Assembly: GCF_963506605.1 (NCBI RefSeq)
Contig: NC_083279.1
Coordinates: 10,788,001 to 10,852,000, forward strand
DNA from: Zootoca vivipara
Taxonomy: Eukaryota
Reading direction: 5' to 3'
Length of the DNA stretch: 64,000 bases
Both the position numbers and the translations under genes were made by a program. Below, piece by piece: positions 1,860-23,973 of this stretch. The notes below the pieces were generated by a model, which saw only the letters and a program-made list of their open reading frames with translations, had not been told where the DNA came from and did not search any database. The number at the start of each line of letters is the position of its first letter. The first letter of the stretch is position 1.

Positions 1860-4800
1860 TGAGTGTGGAGGAGACCGCTCCCTGCTGAAAGGCCCTTCTC
1901 CTGAGAGGCAGCAGCAAGAAGGATGTTTTTAATGTTTTAAATATTTGGCGTTTCAAATGCTGGTGTGTTTTTTAATGTTGAGGGTGGGACAAATCTTTAG
2001 TTGGGGTGGGAATTAGTTTAATTTTAGGGTTTTTGTTTTTGTTGTTTAGTTTCTATTTTATTGGTGTATTGTTTAGTTTGTATTTTGGTTTTAAGGGGAA
2101 AGGGTCAGGGGTGCCTGGGAGTGGGCCCTAGCCAACAGAATGGCTGGGGCAGGTTCCACCGGGGGGGGGGCGGTGCACACAGGTAGGAGGATGAGTTATG
2201 TTAAGGCCAGACCATGTCATTACATGGGAGGCAGGTTTAGTAGTTGTTTGACGACTATCCCTGCCTCCAGTCTGGTCTTGACTGGAAGGATATTGGAATC
2301 AGCAAGGGAGACCCACATGACATGAAGGTGCTGCTGTGCAATACCAGGTCAATGATGAATAAGACCACTGCCATCCATGACTTATCATGGATGGCGGACT
2401 TGACCTGGCATGTGTGGCAGAGACTTGTTTGGACGAAACAGATGGGCCTGTGCTTGTTGCTGCTTGTCCACTAGGTTTCTCTTACGCACAGGAAACCAGA
2501 TCATATGGGGAGGGGGGGTTGCAGTGATTTTTAGGAAGTCATTGGCTTCCACCAGGCATCTATTGGGAAGACCCAGATTTCTAATTGCATGTTCTGGAAG
2601 CTGGGCAATAGGGGCAGTACTGGATTCCTTTTGGTGTACCGACCTCCCCGCTGCACCAAGGATTCCCTAGCCGAGCTGCTTCAAGTCGTCGCGGATATGC
2701 TCCTGGAGACACCTAGTTTGGTTGTCCTAGGGGATTTTAACATCCATGTTGACACAACCTTACAACGGGCCACTCAGGACTTTGTGGAAAGCATGGCCTC
2801 CATGGGGCTGTCCCTGAATAAGTTTGGCCCAACTCATAGTTGTGGACATGCCTTAGTAGGGGATGTTTCATCCCACGTTGACAGCCTTTCAACTGATTCC
2901 CTGGTGGCCCACTGGAATGCAGAGTTAACCAGGGCTATTGACTGTCTGGCTCCAAAGCACCCTCTCCGATTGCATGGAACCCAAACAGCCCCGTGGTTTC
3001 CCCCAGAGCTGAGGGCAATGAAACAATCCTTGAGATGGCTAGAGTGCTAGTGGTGGAAAACTCATGGTGAAATGGACCGGACACAGGTTAGAGCTCAACA
3101 TCAAGCCTACCAAGTGGCGATAGCAATGGCGAAGAGGACCTTTTTCACTGCCTCTATTGCATCTACAGAAAACAGCAGCAGGAGACTCTTTCAGGTGGTT
3201 CATATTTTAATGGAACCACCTGCGCCATAGGGGCCTGATAAGGCCTCCAAGATCTTCTGCAATGATTTTGCAAAGTTTTTTGCAGATCAAGTTGCTCAGA
3301 TTTGAAAAGAGGTAGACTCCACTGTGGGAGCAGGGCCAGGGGAGGAGAGTACTAGAGTCCTGTCTTGTCAAGTTGCATGGGAACAATTCCAATCTGTTAC
3401 CTCTGAGGATGTGGACAGGCTGCTTGGATGAGTGAAACTGACCACCTGTCTCCTTGATCTTTGCCCATCCTGGCTAATAAAAGCGAGCCAGGAAGGGCTG
3501 GGTGATGGGCTCTGCAGGGTGGTGAATGCTCTGTGAGGGGGTCTTCCCAGCCCCGCTGAAAGAGGCAGTCATTAAACCGCTTCTTTTTTTAAAAAAAATC
3601 TTTGGACCCGGCCGATATGATCAACTATCGCCCAGTCTCAAATCTTCCATTCTTGGGCAATGTGATTGAGCGGGTAGTTGCTGAACAACTCCAGGCACGC
3701 CTGGAGGATGCAGATCATTTGGATCCCTTCCAATTGGGATTCAGGCCTCACCATGGGACTGAAATTGCCTTGGTCGTGCTGGTCGATGATCTCCGGCGGG
3801 CTAGGGACAAAGGTGAAAGCTGTTTCCTAGTTCTGCTGGATCTCTCAGCAGCCTTTGATACCAACAATCATAAAACCCTTCTGGACCTTCTAGAAGAGCA
3901 GGGAGCTGGGGGCACTGTTATACAGTGGTTCCGCTCCTTCCTCCTGGGCCGTGTCCAGAAAGTGGTGTTGGAGGATGAGTGTTCAGACCCTTGGGTTCTC
4001 ACTTGTGGGGTGCCTCAGGGTTCCGTCCTCTCCCCCATGCTTTTTAATATCTATATGAAGCCGCTGGGAGAGATAATCAGGGGTTTGGGCTGGGTGCTCA
4101 TCAATATGCAGATGATACCCAGCTCTACCTCTTTCAAATCAGAACCAGTGAGGGTGGTGAAGTGTGAGTGCCTGGAGGTGGTTGGAGGATGGATTGTAGC
4201 TAACAGATTGAGGTAGAATCCTGACAAGACAGAAGTACTGTTTTTTGGGGGGGAGGGTGTGGGTGTGGGGGACTCCTTGGTCCTGAATGGGGAAAATATG
4301 GCCCTGAAGGAGCAGATGTGCAGCCTGGGAGTCATTTTGGACTCACAGCTGTCCATGGAGCTGCAGGTCAATTCTGTGTCCAGGGCAGTTGTCTACCAGC
4401 TCCATCTGGTATGCAGACTGAGACCCTACCTGCCCGTGGACTATCTCACTGGAGTGATGCATGCCCTGGTTATCTCCTGCTTGGACTACTGCAATGCGTT
4501 CTACATGGGGCTACCTTTGAAGGTGACCCGGAAACTGCAACTAATCCAGAATGCAGCAGCTAGACTGGTGTCTGGGAGTGGCCGCCAAGACCATATAACA
4601 CCGATCCTAAAAGATCATTGGCTCCCAGTACGTTTCTGTGCACAAATCAAAGTGTTAGTGCTGACCTTCAAAGCCCTAAACAGCCTCAGCCCAATATACC
4701 TGGGGTTACAGGGAACCAGGAAGAGGGCCTTCTCAGTAGTGGTGCCCACTATGTGGAACGCCCTCCCATTAGCTGTCAAGGAAATAAACAACTATACGAC

Positions 4801-4950
4801 TTTTAGAAGACATCTGAAGGCAGCCCTGTTTAGGGAAGTTTTTACTGTTTGAAGTTTTATTCTGTTTTTAATGTTCTGTTCAAAGCCACCCAGAGTGGCT
4901 GGGGAAACCCAGTCAGATGGTTGGGGTAGAAATAATAAATTATTATTATA
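1860..4950 (+). mobile_element. Near full-length, decayed L2-clade LINE (APE endonuclease + reverse transcriptase)
   Basis: EN motifs across broken frames: LLCNTRSM, GGGVAVI, VYRPP, VLGDFNIH. RT motifs: NYRPVSNLPFL, QLGFRPHHGTE, LLDLSAAFDT, GVPQGSVLSP, and YADD (tatgcagatgat ~4105, frameshifted). L2-type C-terminus LDYCN..HWLPV..KVLVLTFKAL. The 3' end is a GC stem-loop plus aataataaattattattat tail. The 5' boundary is approximate. Confidence 0.93.
2320..4852 (+). pseudogene. Disrupted L2 ORF2 (EN-RT), split into track ORFs 2244-2474, 2410-2670, 2589-3050, 3602-4216 and 4259-4852
   Basis: Consecutive motif blocks lie in different frames with stops; sequence appears deleted near 2855 and 4700. 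Confidence 0.9.
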
Positions 4951-13887: not shown

Positions 13888-14643
13888 GCCTAGAGCAAGG
13901 GGAAGAACAGAGTAGAAGAGGACGAGAGAGAGAAATCAGCTGTAAAATCTGTACAGGGTAGGAACCTGGAACTCTGCATGCTTTGTAAAATTTCAGTGAA
14001 GAGTAAATTACAAATCTCAATCAAATTGATTTACCTTACTTTGTGTGTGTGTGTGTGTGTGTTTTGATTCAACATACAACACACACCTACATTCTGGCTG
14101 GTAGTCCCACCTATTCAAATAAGAAGGAAGCTGTTGCTGGAGAAAAGCTTGAATCAAGAAATATTCCATCCAATCTATAGCATTTTCCCCAAATAGTAGC
14201 ATTTAAGATTGGGAGACGGAGTCTGCTCAAATGCCTCACCAATCTCTAACAAATGGCTGTAAACAGGAATAATTGTTGTTGTTTTGAAGTGAGTATCCTA
14301 CACTATTTGCTACAGAAATGGTTTATGAAGGGAGCCCAACAGTACAGTGTTGCTTCATCCCCCCATCTCCTCTCCTGAACAGGCTGCGAGAAAAACTACC
14401 ATAGTTAGGGATGTAAGAAGGCATTCTTTTCTGTCCCAAGCTCTATTTGCTACAAGTAGCACTGTTTCTCTTCTGCTGCAGTTTGTATTCTGCCAAAAAC
14501 TAAGTCATCAAACTTTATGTACATTATGTTGTCATTATGTTATTCCACCACATTCATTTTTTTCTACTAACTTTATTGAAAATTTTAAAAACAATGACCA
14601 AACACAAAGTGTTGTCTTCCAGTACAAATACATGTACAGATAA

Positions 14644-16342
14644 GGACTTCCAGTCTACCACCATTGCTGACCGGTGGGAGAATCTTGAGCTCCGAGATTC
14701 TCTAGCGCTGTGAGGGGGGGGAAGCCGCAGGAGCGCCACGGACCCCCAAAAGAGCTCCAGATCGAGCGTTCTGGAGACGTGGGGACTCAGCAGCACCTTT
14801 TTCTGTCTCCTCTGCTCCCTGGTAAGCCCTATTAAGGGAGCCGAGAGCGAGCAGAGTGGAGACATGGTACCTTGAGCTAATCTGCTACCCTCGCAACGTG
14901 AAGCTCCAAGCCGGCAGCCTATGGAGCGGTGGATTTTTCCAGATTTGAAAACATTGGACCCCGTGAGTAAAGGAAAAGGCTTTTAAACTTTTTTAATTGA
15001 CAAGATTTGGACACGGGGGGGAGATTAAAAAAGGACGTCAATTTCCCCCATTGAGCGAATTGAGACGCAGTTAACTTGCCCGAAGCCGGGAAGGTGACAG
15101 GAAGTTTTTAATTACCAAAAATCGGACTTAAAACTTTCCCCCTAAGGCAGGGTAAAGGGGAGAAAGGTTGAACTTCGTAAAATCCCTGTAAAGGTTCTTT
15201 AATTTGGTCTGGAGAAAGTCCCCCTGGAAGCTGGAGTCGGGTTCCTGGAGGGATCAGCGAGCCGCCATTATGACATCACAATAGGATGGAATTAGTTTAT
15301 TTCTTTGAGGCTGAAAACTGTCAACATTGAAGAGAGCGTAAAATATAAGGTTGTGAATAAGAAGTTTGACAGCTGCTCTTTTCATAAATGGACATGTGAG
15401 TTTTAAGATATGAAGAAGAATTAAAAATGAGAGTTTGTAACCAGATCGGGCATAATTTCTGTTTCTGAAGTTTGGAAATACGAACTGCGCCATTTCCTGC
15501 TGTAATCTGTGCTGTTCCCACACAATTGGAGACGACCAGGATGTCAGTAGACACAACATCATCTGACTTTTTTGACTTTCAAAAGGAACTTTTGGAATTG
15601 CTTTTGGATTTTAAAAGTGAACTGCATCAGAATGCTATACAGATTGACAAAATAAAACAGAATTGTGCAGAAAGTGAAAAAGGACTAATCCCAACAAAGT
15701 ATGAAAAGAAGCAAGATGAACAATCATCAGCCATGGACAATGTAATTGTATTTAAAGATGATGAAGAAGCTGCATAGAACATTGTTCCCTCAGTGGGGGA
15801 GGGGGTTTAACAGGACTCATGCTTTGATAAAAAGAGCCTTCAAAGAATACCCAGCATGGAATAATGCCCTCCCAGTGAGAGAGGGGGGACAGGACCCACG
15901 CTGGGGCCAGACCTTAAGGGGAACCAAAATTGGGACAGGGCTGAAAAGTGGAAATGTAGTTGGATGGTATTGTGCATCAGCTAGGAAATTGGGGAGGCAG
16001 CAGGGGACGAAGAAGGGAGAGTGGTGGATAGGTGGTGAAAGAGTGGGAGTGGGGTGAGGAGTAATGATGGATGTTATTTGTTTTTTTTGACTGATCAAGA
16101 TGGCCCCAAACTGGAATGACCTATGGAACTGGAACTGGCTGATTCATCTGGGAGACCCTGAGTCTAGGGGTGGGGTGGGGGCTGAATTAGGTTAGGGGAA
16201 TTGAGGGAGTCTACAATGTTGATTAAAATGTTAGAATTGATAAGTTTTTCATTTTTTATGTTTTTATTCTTGTTTTTTCTGAATTTTTGTAATTTGTAAT
16301 GTTTGGAAATCAATAAATATTATATGGAAAACAAACAAACAA
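14644..16342 (+). mobile_element. Complete 1.7-kb non-autonomous L1-like (HAL1-like) retroposon lacking ORF2
   Basis: Perfect 20-bp TSD ACAAATACATGTACAGATAA (14624-14643, 16343-16362). It has a GGACTTCC 5' start, a CpG-rich 5' UTR, one broken ORF, a G-rich then T-rich 3' UTR, AATAAA at 16312 and an A-rich (AAAC)n tail. Confidence 0.85.
15541..16057 (+). pseudogene. Broken single ORF of the L1-like element (coiled-coil-like N-terminus, possibly ORF1-derived)
   Basis: ATG at 15541 gives MSVDTTSSDFFDFQKELLELLLDFKSELHQNAIQIDKIKQ with heptad-like hydrophobic spacing and a stop at 15777. An overlapping frame (15746-16057) continues to ..GERVGVG*. Confidence 0.5.
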
Positions 16343-18614
16343 ACAAATACATGTACAGATAATGTATTACCATAAGTCTTGTATGCAGCCATCCACATTA
16401 ATTTCATTGTTAATGAACACAATGCTTTTGTGTGTGTGCACAATCAGTTATAGATCGTTCATGGACTGAAAGCAACAATCATATACCGATCATATTCACT
16501 GGACTGATTTGAATTCTGGACAGGGAACAATAGGCGAATGCTGGCAATTTATGTTCCTGTTTTTATCCATCAGTGAAATTCTCCAACATCCCTACCTGTA
16601 GCCCCTCATGCTATATTGCTGCTGGTGCTTCCTACTGGTAGACGGGCAAGGCATGCACAAGACTTCACTCATTCCTTCACTCATGCTAACCCCCACACTG
16701 GAAATCATGATCTCAGGGACCACAGCTTTGTAAGAGGTATATATTTATTCCTTTGGCTATTTTGTGCCTACTTATCGGGGTGGGGGAGTAATGTATTCTT
16801 TGTATTGTCAAAACGGCCATGCCTTATCTTGTACTTGATTAATGGGAAACAGCCATATATAACCTAACAGGATCATTCACATTTGCAGTGTGTCCCTGCA
16901 TCTAATACTGCATTGTCATTGAGTGAGAGCCTTTGACCTTTCAGCTCAGAATACTGACGCACAGATAGGCAAACAACAGTTTCTCAACTGCAGCTTCCTT
17001 TAGCTCTACCACCTGGAAAATGATTTTTTGCTCCACGGAGTTGTTGAAGAGGATGAACAAAACAATTTCTTGTTGTTGCTTTTTCCACAAATCAGCAGAG
17101 AACAAGAACAGTGCAGTGATTAAATAGATTGTTTAATGATCACTTTCACTGCTGTGTTTGTATCTGTTCCAATGACAGCACTGTTTAGTTCCTTCAAAAC
17201 ACAAAAATTCAACACTTCCATTTAATGATGCTAGATTTTTTCAAAGAAACCATTTTTAAGGGAGTTGCTATGCTGAAGACAATGAAGGCACTTTAAAAAA
17301 CCACCCAAATATTATGAACTATATTTGTCATCTCTCGTAAGTGTGTAACCCAGCTTCTCAAAAGGGCACTCACAGTATGGCTATCCTTTAGGCTTTCTCT
17401 GGCCTTTTCAGCTCACTGTTGGTCTGTTTATTTATTAAAAAAAAAACACACACAGCAGACAAGCTGTATCATTTGCTTTAAATCAGAACATAACTTAGTC
17501 TATGTGATAACAATTTTATCTTCCACAATGTACAGAAAGATGTAAAGTTGAACACATTAGCTACATTATTTTATGTTTCAATGGGGGAAAGGGCACATGA
17601 AATTAAATACTGGCAATTTGCTAACTTTGTATTTTAAGTTTTGAGACAATGCAAGAAAATAACGTTGTCGCAGAATGCACGCAATAAGAAATTAAACAAC
17701 AAAAATGAACATCTGTTCCAGGATGAGAAATGCATATTCACAGAGGTACTTAAATAGTTCCATATGGAACCTTAATATTGTTTAATTGCATTTTTGGACA
17801 ATGCGGGTAGCATATTAACAATTACTGCTACCAATAGAAAATTATAAATAAGCCTCTAGCTACAAGGAACAGGAGGAATGGAGAATTAGCCTCTCCTTGT
17901 CTTTGTTGTACAAAAACAAACAAACGTAAGAGCATTCCACTTACACTAAAGGCTTTCATCCTAACCAAACTTGTTAATTACACAGTTGTGAAAAATGGGA
18001 GGAAAATGTTTCTTAGACTGCTGATTTACGATTGATTATCAATAACCCCCAGTTTTAAGATGAACATGTGTTACAGCCTTGAAATCTGCTTGTGTAGGAA
18101 CCATCACTCATGTTGCTCAGAATTGAGGGTCTCCACACAACTGCATTGTTTATAGATGTAAAACATGTTCACTTTCAAATTGACCATAGAATTAAGAGTT
18201 GTTGATTCTCCCATTTACTGCACACCCTAGAAGATTTTTTTTAAAAAAATTCTATTTATATGCAGATTTCTATCCTGCCCACCTAGAGTCTCATATTGTT
18301 ATTCATATCACATGCAGATCATGGAAAAATCTGTACTTTTGCCACACGTGGAGAGTGAAAAGCTTAAAAGCTTCTTACTGTGTATATAGCCTGACATGTT
18401 TGAGACTTACAACAACAGATGTCAGGAACATGCAGTACCCACAGGGGGTGGAATGCACCTAGGAGCTCTTAAATGTTAACCTCCTACCGTGCAGTGTCAA
18501 CATAAGTAAGATATTCTGGCAGCTTGCACATGAAGTAACATTTAAACTGGTCCTTGTAAATAAGATTACTGCAATGAGTTGGATTTGAATTTACCAAATC
18601 AAAGCATTCAAAAA

Positions 18615-21311: not shown

Positions 21312-23493
21312 CAATGTAATTCCATGATGATCAATCTGTGGCCCTCCATATGTTGCTGGATTACAACTTCCATCATTCTGACCATCGGTTGGAATTCAAC
21401 AACATATGGAGGGCCACAGGTGCTCCATACTTGATTTAGTCAGTCAAAATTGGGGTAGATACATTTGATTTTTTTTATAATAACATTAATGCAATGTATA
21501 GAACTAGTGTGTGTCAACTGCTCCCCTTAAACATAAGTGAGAGTGACCAAAAAGAAGTGCTTTTCCTTTTCCAGGGTCAGTAGCAGAGTCATTGGCCACC
21601 ACTTCTGCAGAGTTATGGGCCCGGGGTTTTGTTAACTAGTGTATTGTACCATATCCCAAGATAACAACAATTAGAGTAACGTGTTGAGATGTAAACTTAT
21701 TACATCTTAGTATTTACACCTTAAGTCTCACTATTTTTCCTGCTCCAAGGTATAAAAGTATCTAAAAACTATTTTCAACCTGAAACTTCACACCTTATAT
21801 GTTAGCAAGTTTCCATGCCAAGGCTTTACTTTCATTTATGTATAATTTAGCTTTATTTCAGGACCTTTTCTGTGAAATGTAACTGATTTACCAATTACCC
21901 ACATGGCTCTCAGTGATTTCTACTGCTGGAAATGTGAAATTAATCATTTCTACATTTCTGGAACTTCCGCTGGGATAAATATGTTGTTAAATTGCATTAA
22001 AAACAACTAATTTCCTCCATCAAATAGAAGCAAACATAGTAATAAGAAAGGGGGGGACAGCATTTCTACTCATATATTTTCCCTCAGGAAGAAGTGCCAC
22101 AAAAACAAACATTTCATAGGATTTGTGAGGGCATGCAGACACAGAAACAGAGACATAATTTGTGTAATTCTTTTTGCACTCACAGCAAGACAAATTGCCT
22201 TGTTTTGAACACCAAGGCTGATGAAAATTGCACAATAGGGTACAAAATTGCCATTGCGACAGGCTGAGTTTGTATATAGTAAATACGATCTTGATGATCT
22301 AAGAGTGATTTTACTGCATTTTGAACAATTACAGGATGTATTTATGTTCTGTCTTCAAAATTACACACATTCATGAACTTTTCATGTACTTTGACTATTT
22401 ACACTGATCATCTTTACATTTCTTATATTTGAGATGGATGAGTACATGCAAACTTTCTATCTAGAGCATTAGCAAGAATCCAGATTTATAACCCATTGCC
22501 ATTTTAGCATGAGAAACTGTGGTATCTAGCATGAATGGCACTGGGAAGATGTGGCCTTTACAAAGAATGAACTAATATTTAAATAACTAAGGAAGAAAGT
22601 TCTGAAAAACAAATCTAGAAATGATCGAAGGTTGACTTATATACATGATACTGAGGAGGAGGTAAGGTCTGAGCATAAACCACTTTATCTTCTCAAGTAA
22701 GGCTGCAGTTATGGCAGAGGCGGAAGATTCTGAGCCGAACTCAACAGTAAGAAAGCACGAGGGTTTGAATGATAAGAGAGGAAGGGGGTAGTTAATGACA
22801 ACACATAACATTTCTAGAGTAGCTATGGGTTTGCCTATAACTCCATCTGTAGCTAACATTTTTATGGGTGCCTTTGAAAAAAACACATATTTTGAATAAT
22901 AATCCTTTTGCTAAGTCGTTGTTGTTTTATTGTAGATTCATTGATGACTTGTTTTTCTTGTTTGAGAATTAGAATGAATTTATTCACTTTACTGACTGGT
23001 TAAATTCTTCCTTATCTTTTTTCTGGACATCATAGCACCGTATCATGTGTGTTTTTGGATGTAGAGGTCTTCAAACATAAAGGATACTTAGTTGTTAGGC
23101 CCCATAAAAAACCTACAGACTTCTCCATTATTCCTCATTTCACCGCAGACGTCTTAAAGACAACTTACCTTACGGTTTATTTTTACGTCTGAAGAGGAAT
23201 TCCTCATGCCATGGGGACTTTTGCAAAAATGCTGAGTCATTAGCTGCCTCACTACATGCGAGCCAGAACCAAGTCTGTTGTGAGGGATCGTTCCACTCTT
23301 TTACATTGGTCCGACTCACCCAATATACTCGGCAGAATCACAGGCTCGCTGGAGTACTCATCTTACACTGACAGAATTATTAGATTGATACGGAAGCACT
23401 GGCACATGCTTTGGAACGTGCAAGGATGCTCGTAATTTCCTTTGCTGGGACTCAAACATACTAATTGCTTTAAGGACCTATTGGTACATACTG

Positions 23494-23973
23494 ATGTTAA
23501 CATCCAACCGTATTTTTTCTGGTCCTGTGGGACATTTTAGATGTGGCAGGTGTCCCTCTTGCCCACTGGCCTTACAAGCTAAGGTGATTTACAATGAAAA
23601 TACAAAATTTAAGTTTGTTATCAACCACTTTAGTACATGCCAAACGAAAGAGGTGGTGTATTTAATTAGGTGCCCGTGCAATTTATTTTATATAGGGTCG
23701 ACCACTCGGTCGGTGGGCACACGTGTAGGTGAACACTGGTCCCGCATTATAAATGCGGTTCTGGGAGCACCCCTTGTTGAACATTTTCTATTTAACAATC
23801 ACTCAGACTCAGATTTGCTCTTTACAGTTCTGTGGATTAATAGGAGAAATGCAAACACTAGATGTGACTACATAAAACGGTTAAGACAAAAAGAATCACA
23901 ATTTATTTTCACATTCAAGACGCTCCATCCTGGAGGGTTGAACTCTGAGTTAGATCTGAATTGTTTCATTTAA
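23494..23973 (+). pseudogene. Penelope GIY-YIG endonuclease domain (open 159-aa frame; upstream RT disrupted)
   Basis: VVY-x9-YIG motif, conserved Arg/Glu, C-terminal GLN and upstream Cys cluster. Confidence 0.88.

Follow-up and report, generated by a model that had tools for sequence, protein, structure and literature searches.

An ORF2-less, L1-derived family with a single selected reading frame, represented by a decayed copy in the lizard Zootoca vivipara

Within a stretch of 64,000 nucleotides from the lizard Zootoca vivipara (assembly GCF_963506605.1, contig NC_083279.1, positions 10,788,001 to 10,852,000; hereafter the window, whose forward-strand positions serve as coordinates), the insert at 14624..16362 is a decayed copy of an abundant, multi-copy, ORF2-less family of ~1.96 kb derived from the retrotransposon L1. 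The single open reading frame (ORF) of this family is maintained by selection and, judged by sequence homology, the parent L1 lineage is present in the same genome. A preliminary description, based on the letters of the window, had proposed a non-autonomous, protein-coding derivative of a lizard L1, and both the origin of the two ends from lizard L1 and the selection on the ORF bear this out. Its view of the insert as a complete 1.7-kb unit did not hold, as the family unit measures ~1.96 kb and the studied copy alone is shortened by 266 bp. The insert comprises the following features:

14624..14643, forward strand: 5' target-site duplication (TSD) of 20 bp, an exact repeat of 16343..16362
14644..16342, forward strand: whole element, a copy of subfamily A1, 4.6% off the A1 consensus
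14645..15285, forward strand: 5' untranslated region (5'UTR), homologous to the parent L1 lineage (nhmmer, E 3e-88)
14678..14702, forward strand: 10-bp hairpin with compensatory changes, common to the parent L1 and a sister family
15264..15279, forward strand: conserved box at the end of the parent-L1 homology, in the 60-nt bin of highest identity between subfamilies (0.98)
15286..15540, forward strand: distal leader, without detectable parent-L1 homology in sequence comparison
15541..16057, forward strand: single ORF, ~170 codons in the family, broken here by one stop and two small insertions
15556..15669, forward strand: predicted helix at the N-terminus, spanning residues 6-43 and likely corresponding to the first part of the L1 ORF1 coiled coil (AlphaFold2 of the sister copy L015; profile match, E 0.012)
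16037..16057, forward strand: C-terminal E-R-V-G-V-G-stop, a candidate RxxxG C-degron (alignment and published motif definitions)
16122..16161, forward strand: decayed remnant of the L1 ORF2 C-terminus (sequence comparison with L1 ORF2)
16193..16194, forward strand: junction of the 266-bp deletion private to the studied copy (copy alignment; public contigs)
16196..16342, forward strand: L1-derived 3' end with T-rich tract, AATAAA at 16312 and A-rich tail (sequence comparison)
16343..16362, forward strand: 3' TSD, an exact repeat of 14624..14643

The anatomy described earlier was recovered, namely the perfect TSD, a defined 5' start at 14644 (reading GGACTTCC), the hairpin, the CpG-rich leader, one broken ORF, and a G-/T-rich 3' part with AATAAA and an A-rich tail, which is of the (CAAA)n type. 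The 5'UTR opens with a sequence matching the lizard clade-1 L1 terminus GACTTCCGG. There are 28 CpG in the first 700 nt of the insert vs 0.84 per 100 nt window-wide, and a GC content above 55% is confined to its first 300 nt. Across 14 sequences chosen by loop motif, 6 of the 10 hairpin pairs are altered on both sides. The conserved box at 15264..15279 is presumably CRE/YY1-like. The ORF lesions are a stop at 15775-15777 and insertions of +2 and +1 near 15795 and 15823. As reported before, endonuclease (EN) and reverse transcriptase (RT) are missing: an intact L1 ORF2 containing both domains did not match the insert significantly (best E 0.7), although a short, degraded piece of the ORF2 C-terminus persists. 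The 266-bp deletion in the 3'UTR was found in only one of 52 copies covering the site, namely the studied one; its junction occurs with zero differences in contigs from three public runs of two studies, one possibly from the source sample, and is therefore not an assembly error.

Genome-wide, the insert as DNA query returned 936 candidates (40 scored) and the ORF as protein query 1234 (150 scored). Among 30 loci inspected, 28 retain the 5' end, and 17 of these show distinct TSDs of 15-21 bp, most of them spanning 1.8-2.1 kb; nine further, more divergent copies carry TSDs of 15-20 bp. Half of the matches to the 3' end (15/30) are 5'-truncated, five of them with TSDs of 17-19 bp, and no L1 ORF2 lies upstream in any of the 30. 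The individual TSDs of the sister copies and the occurrence of 5'-truncated copies show that the short unit itself moved, as had been supposed, but at a length of ~1.96 kb. When eight copies that end midway were extended, two resumed beyond nested long terminal repeat (LTR) elements and none ran into ORF1 or ORF2.

A FastTree tree built from 69 non-redundant copies was interpreted as comprising five subfamilies (59 copies used), A1, to which the studied copy belongs, A2, B, C and D. Mean divergence from the respective consensus is 3.7% in A1 and 4.7, 6.3, 6.2 and 9.9% in the other four, and copies diverge star-like within subfamilies. The five consensuses are mutually 81-98% alike, those four with an open ORF 81-89%.

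These data leave a negligible probability to one post-insertion deletion of a full L1 or to a processed pseudogene. Single copies of the parent L1 with internal deletions do exist and the studied copy has its one private deletion, but dozens of same-length copies with distinct TSDs fall into five subfamilies, and both ends are L1-derived. The objections raised by the preliminary description itself thus fail: the insert is not a single copy, its sisters measure 1.9-2.1 kb and not 5-7 kb, and a spliced host mRNA is contradicted by the lizard L1 origin of both ends. A processed pseudogene is further countered by the lack of a protein homologue (lizard coverage of the searched sets is not established). 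Identity as a short interspersed element (SINE) was ruled out as well, with no Rfam match at E 0.1, a head that is L1 5'UTR and not an RNA polymerase III transcript, and a protein-coding ORF under selection.

The preliminary description had suggested looking for an autonomous L1 with the same ends, and such a lineage, represented by L323, shares the 5' ~640 nt and the 3' ~470 nt of the family. L323 is a TSD-flanked L1 with ORF1 and ORF2. Its similarity to the family covers nt 1-646 (E 3.5e-91) and, on the 3' side, the last ~470 nt (E 1.4e-19), the latter match starting within the ORF2 C-terminus, ~58 nt past the family stop. All of the ~12 5' copies of this lineage are decayed; its ORF2 ends lie 2-13% off consensus, overlapping subfamilies A-C at 3-6%. 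Other L1 lineages of the same genome include intact, near-identical copies. Two such groups were considered as parent: an AC-rich clade (16 loci), rejected because only the first 10 nt are common, and a second group (20 loci), in which the similarity is confined to the 5' terminus and a GGAAGTC motif; both include intact copies. Several copies of the parent lineage (L368, L356, L371, L352, L323) have large internal deletions, and L368 fuses the 5'UTR straight to the ORF2 end, which is the plan of the family with different breakpoints.

The family ORF encodes 170-190 amino acids. In the A2, B, C and D consensuses it reads without interruption from Met to G-x-G-stop; the A1 consensus is frameshifted in a G-run, and a G-run within the ORF is a frameshift hot spot. 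Nine of 69 copies have an open ORF, some joined across nested insertions. Inside the ORF, all four indel events keep the frame (12/12 in pairwise counts) vs 2/86 pairwise outside it, none of 400 neutral simulations kept all four lines open, and the shifted frames contain 7-16 stops. A comparison of nonsynonymous and synonymous rates across subfamilies, proposed earlier, gave a maximum-likelihood ω of 0.625 (twice the log-likelihood difference 7.2 vs ω = 1, p ~0.007), which is modestly below 1; at a transition/transversion ratio of 3, 6% of neutral runs hit the observed Nei-Gojobori value. By the same estimator, ω is lowest in the helix (0.34) and highest in the acidic linker (0.77). The ORF is hence maintained by selection, and its frame is far more constrained than its amino acids. 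Because the downstream frame varies between subfamilies, translation continuing into it by readthrough was rejected.

The first ~40 residues likely derive from the coiled-coil start of the parent L1 ORF1. AlphaFold2 predicted for the sister copy L015 a single helix at residues 6-43, and the part past residue 44, modelled at low confidence, is predicted to be disordered. A profile of the N-terminus run over 2.06 million residues had the start of the parent ORF1 as its top non-family match (E 0.012; parent copies were over-represented in the set), and parent ORF1 made up three of the four top non-family matches, ahead of ORF1s from other L1s and of gag coiled coils in the set. Alternatively, the ORF and the distal leader could have been captured from a non-ORF1 source, giving a bipartite L1 with a passenger gene whose helix resembles ORF1 through coiled-coil bias. 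This would agree with the parent DNA homology, which ends abruptly around nt 650, the flanks being 70-78% alike, and with the lack of a homologue in the searched protein sets; it is nevertheless improbable, given that the ORF starts at nt 906, close to nt 943 for the parent ORF1, and that the parent ORF1 outscores the other candidates.

As for the presumed ORF1-type gene of a HAL1-like element, the ORF2-less L1 derivative stands, but the protein is not a whole ORF1p: its RNA recognition motif (RRM) and C-terminal domain (CTD) are not detectable by sequence, the residues past the helix had no ORF1 match among the loci compared, and only the first helix probably traces to ORF1. The post-helix part is acidic and Trp-rich, and the net charge, -8 to -19, argues against the protein binding RNA itself. 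An origin of the Trp-rich half from ORF2 or from the ORF1 tail was considered, with no supporting alignment. Some parent ORF1 tails hold an R-L-G-L-G stretch resembling the C-terminus of the family. No Pfam family scored above cut-off for seven ORFs, and Transposase_22 (PF02994) had no match in the genome; this blank is uninformative because genuine lizard ORF1s were missed too. No homologue was found in 5.8 billion proteins (one query), 1.84 billion representatives or the PDB, and a single-sequence fold of a relative's ORF1 had low confidence and no structural match.

Among loci fetched for other purposes, a distant sister family surfaced, consisting of L276 and L316 (G000:C13:5881500-5891200 and G000:C12:5290700-5298900; both 2.1-2.2 kb long and flanked by TSDs) and L308, with partial sequences in L179 and L189. 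It is likewise ORF2-less, has the same 5' hairpin and a common proximal 5'UTR (E 1e-25 to 1e-37), and its open, acidic ORF of 137-146 amino acids ends in W-E-R-x-G-V-G-stop, with no detectable likeness to the family ORF outside this C-terminal end. The ending R-x-G-x-G-stop is kept at the protein level in the sister family. Aligned across four consensuses and three sister copies, the C-terminus reads [ED]-R-hydrophobic-G-[VI]-G-stop, with R, G, G and stop invariant in all seven sequences in the presence of synonymous changes; identity at codon positions 1, 2 and 3 is 0.79, 0.96 and 0.49 (six codons, pairs not independent). In six of the seven lineages, a Trp lies at a constant spacing from the stop. 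L308 (G000:C17:114000-122500) is a chimera in which the sister-family 5' half with its open ORF passes, just after the ORF2-end remnant, into the middle of a parent ORF1, by either a template switch or a nested insertion.

With Arg at -5 and a terminal Gly, the ending has the sequence of an RxxxG C-degron (KLHDC3/APPBP2). KLHDC3, whose expression is highest in testis, is described to bind C-terminal RxxxG (PMC12922316) and to favour Arg, Lys or Gln at -2 while tolerating Arg at -3 and -5 (PMC11568203); for APPBP2, binding to RxxG/RxxxG is reported (PMC7458402). As a chance level, 76 of 8357 frames in the examined DNA end in RxxxG, family copies included, and none of 30 listed frames upstream of ORF2 in the AC-rich and second L1 groups does. 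We regard this fit to a C-degron as a lead and not as a result.

The reading that we favour, and to which we give an even chance, is that the insert represents a defunct copy of an ORF2-less lizard L1 derivative which borrowed its RT, used its helix as a tether to a helper's ORF1p and had its product destroyed through RxxxG. Very probably, such elements would be transcribed by RNA polymerase II from the retained 5'UTR, and their RNA copied in trans by the ORF2p of an intact helper L1 through target-primed reverse transcription, as suggested by TSDs, tails and truncations. The next step has an even chance: the helix would leave the ribosome first, with ~130 residues of disordered spacer behind it, and would co-assemble with helper ORF1p while this tail is still ribosome-bound on its own mRNA, the ribosome acting as RNA link in place of the lost RRM and CTD. 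L1 proteins are reported to prefer their own RNA (PMC5605252), so that the parasite would gain from proximity. Once released, the protein would be destroyed via its C-terminal RxxxG before inhibiting the helper; the same source (PMC5605252) reports that human ORF1p cut down to N-terminus and coiled coil represses L1 in trans, and such inhibition by free N-terminal fragments would be a reason to destroy the product. That the motif is indeed a CRL2 degron (KLHDC3/APPBP2-type) clearing a helper-inhibiting fragment is a tentative proposal with less than an even chance. Somewhat bolder, and rather unlikely, is the view that an old lineage of reptile L1 parasites rebuilt ORF1 as a disposable tether, with a docking helix, a freely drifting spacer and a host C-degron at the end; if true, this would be a transposon employing the C-end degradation pathway within its own life cycle.

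Several observations weigh against the favoured reading. Besides the enriched profile set and the modest ω mentioned above, hhalign gave the helix a probability of only 18.6% against ORF1, unrelated L1 ORF1s score equally in pairwise comparison for three of four consensuses, no homology to the parent L1 is detectable at the DNA level for family nt 650-1445, and the sister-family N-terminus had no L1 ORF1 match. No intact parent-lineage copy was present among the best 150 matches. As to the degron, such motifs are described as poor predictors of substrates (PMC12922316, PMC11568203), position -2 is hydrophobic in the family vs the Arg, Lys or Gln favoured by KLHDC3, the conserved Gly at -3, the hydrophobic residues at -2 and -4 and the upstream Trp are left unexplained, and the motif evidence comprises six codons of single origin.

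Part of the same evidence fits a model in which translation alone matters: the ORF would retain or pause ribosomes, and W...R-x-G-x-G-stop would be a nascent-peptide pausing or termination signal and not a degron. Tunnel-acting arrest peptides with a fixed Trp exist. A frame constraint far exceeding that on amino acids, the fixed spacing between Trp and stop in six of seven lineages and the disorder predicted past residue 44 are all consistent with this model, but the most constrained segment is the helix, which translation per se would not need; we consider it unlikely. Very improbable is an anti-helper protein, whose helix would bind L1 ORF1p and whose degron would drag the complex to the proteasome, either freeing ORF2p for the parasite or restraining L1 for the host. 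The observed layout of binder, disordered linker and C-degron would suit it, as would the inhibition of L1 in trans by truncated ORF1p (PMC5605252) and the decay of every sampled parent-lineage copy. However, the family depends on L1, its star-like divergence in subfamilies gives no sign of a single domesticated locus, and other L1 lineages of the same genome have intact, near-identical copies.

Compared with known elements, the family resembles HAL1 of mammals, for which an ORF1p is described as the only product (PMC5753468, PMC5786205) and multimerisation with the helper's protein as its proposed role (PMC5786205), in being a non-autonomous L1 derivative with a 5'UTR, one ORF under selection, an L1 3' end, TSDs and poly(A). 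In contrast to HAL1, it lacks a complete ORF1p, as only ~40 N-terminal residues probably trace to ORF1 with RRM and CTD undetectable, and it has a new acidic, Trp-rich tail ending in RxGxG-stop as well as the retained scrap of the ORF2 end. Because the test for a whole ORF1p failed, we file it as a HAL1-like variant and not as HAL1 in the strict sense. With lizard clade-1 L1, whose 5' terminus consensus is given as GACTTCCGG (PMC5381506), it shares this terminus and a long, CpG-bearing 5'UTR, and its ORF2 end and 3'UTR are homologous to one L1 lineage in this genome, but it is without EN/RT and measures 2 kb vs ~6.4 kb. HeT-A and Ag-Sponge are similarly helper-dependent with a single protein, but they come from the Jockey and CR1 clades, and their protein is described as an ORF1p counterpart (PMC5786205). 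The truncated human ORF1p inhibitors (PMC5605252) also consist of N-terminus and coiled coil without RNA-binding domains; they are accidental stop-codon products of single loci, whereas the lizard fragment is kept by a mobile family under selection. In the literature searched, we found no reptile HAL1-type family and no C-degron in a transposable element; the family may be catalogued in Repbase or Dfam.

These findings extend the half-L1 lifestyle to lizards, with a parent lineage and five dated subfamilies within one genome. They also address the question of why HAL1-type elements retain a protein: the family shed its RNA-binding domains, yet its frame, first helix and final six codons persist, so that the question splits into docking, translation and turnover.

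None of the runs carrying family sequence is recorded as RNA. In three RNA runs (tissue unspecified), of which ~6% each was read, we counted 114, 74 and 152 patchy family reads on both strands, with no reads at the element 5' start in this sample.

Further observations concern the element and its surroundings. The 5' terminus GACTTCC (14644-14651) is the reverse complement of GGAAGTC in the family 3'UTR (16203-16211), a motif that most GT-rich L1s (L256-L275) also carry; by sequence, end-to-end pairing is possible. A small frame of 30 codons at 16113-16190, which overlaps the remnant of ORF2, stays open in each of the five consensuses; a comparable peptide can be read in the sister family. Many copies (such as L004, L008, L009, L011, L013, L015) have a G-run in place of poly(A) right before the TSD. 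The copies L121 and L123 are split by closely similar LTR elements with long open frames, which we take to be Gypsy-like. Elsewhere in the window, decayed EN/RT fragments at 2535-4849 are presumably of L2/CR1 type, and an open frame of 194 amino acids at 23389-23970 resembles what we assume to be a Penelope-type GIY-YIG end.

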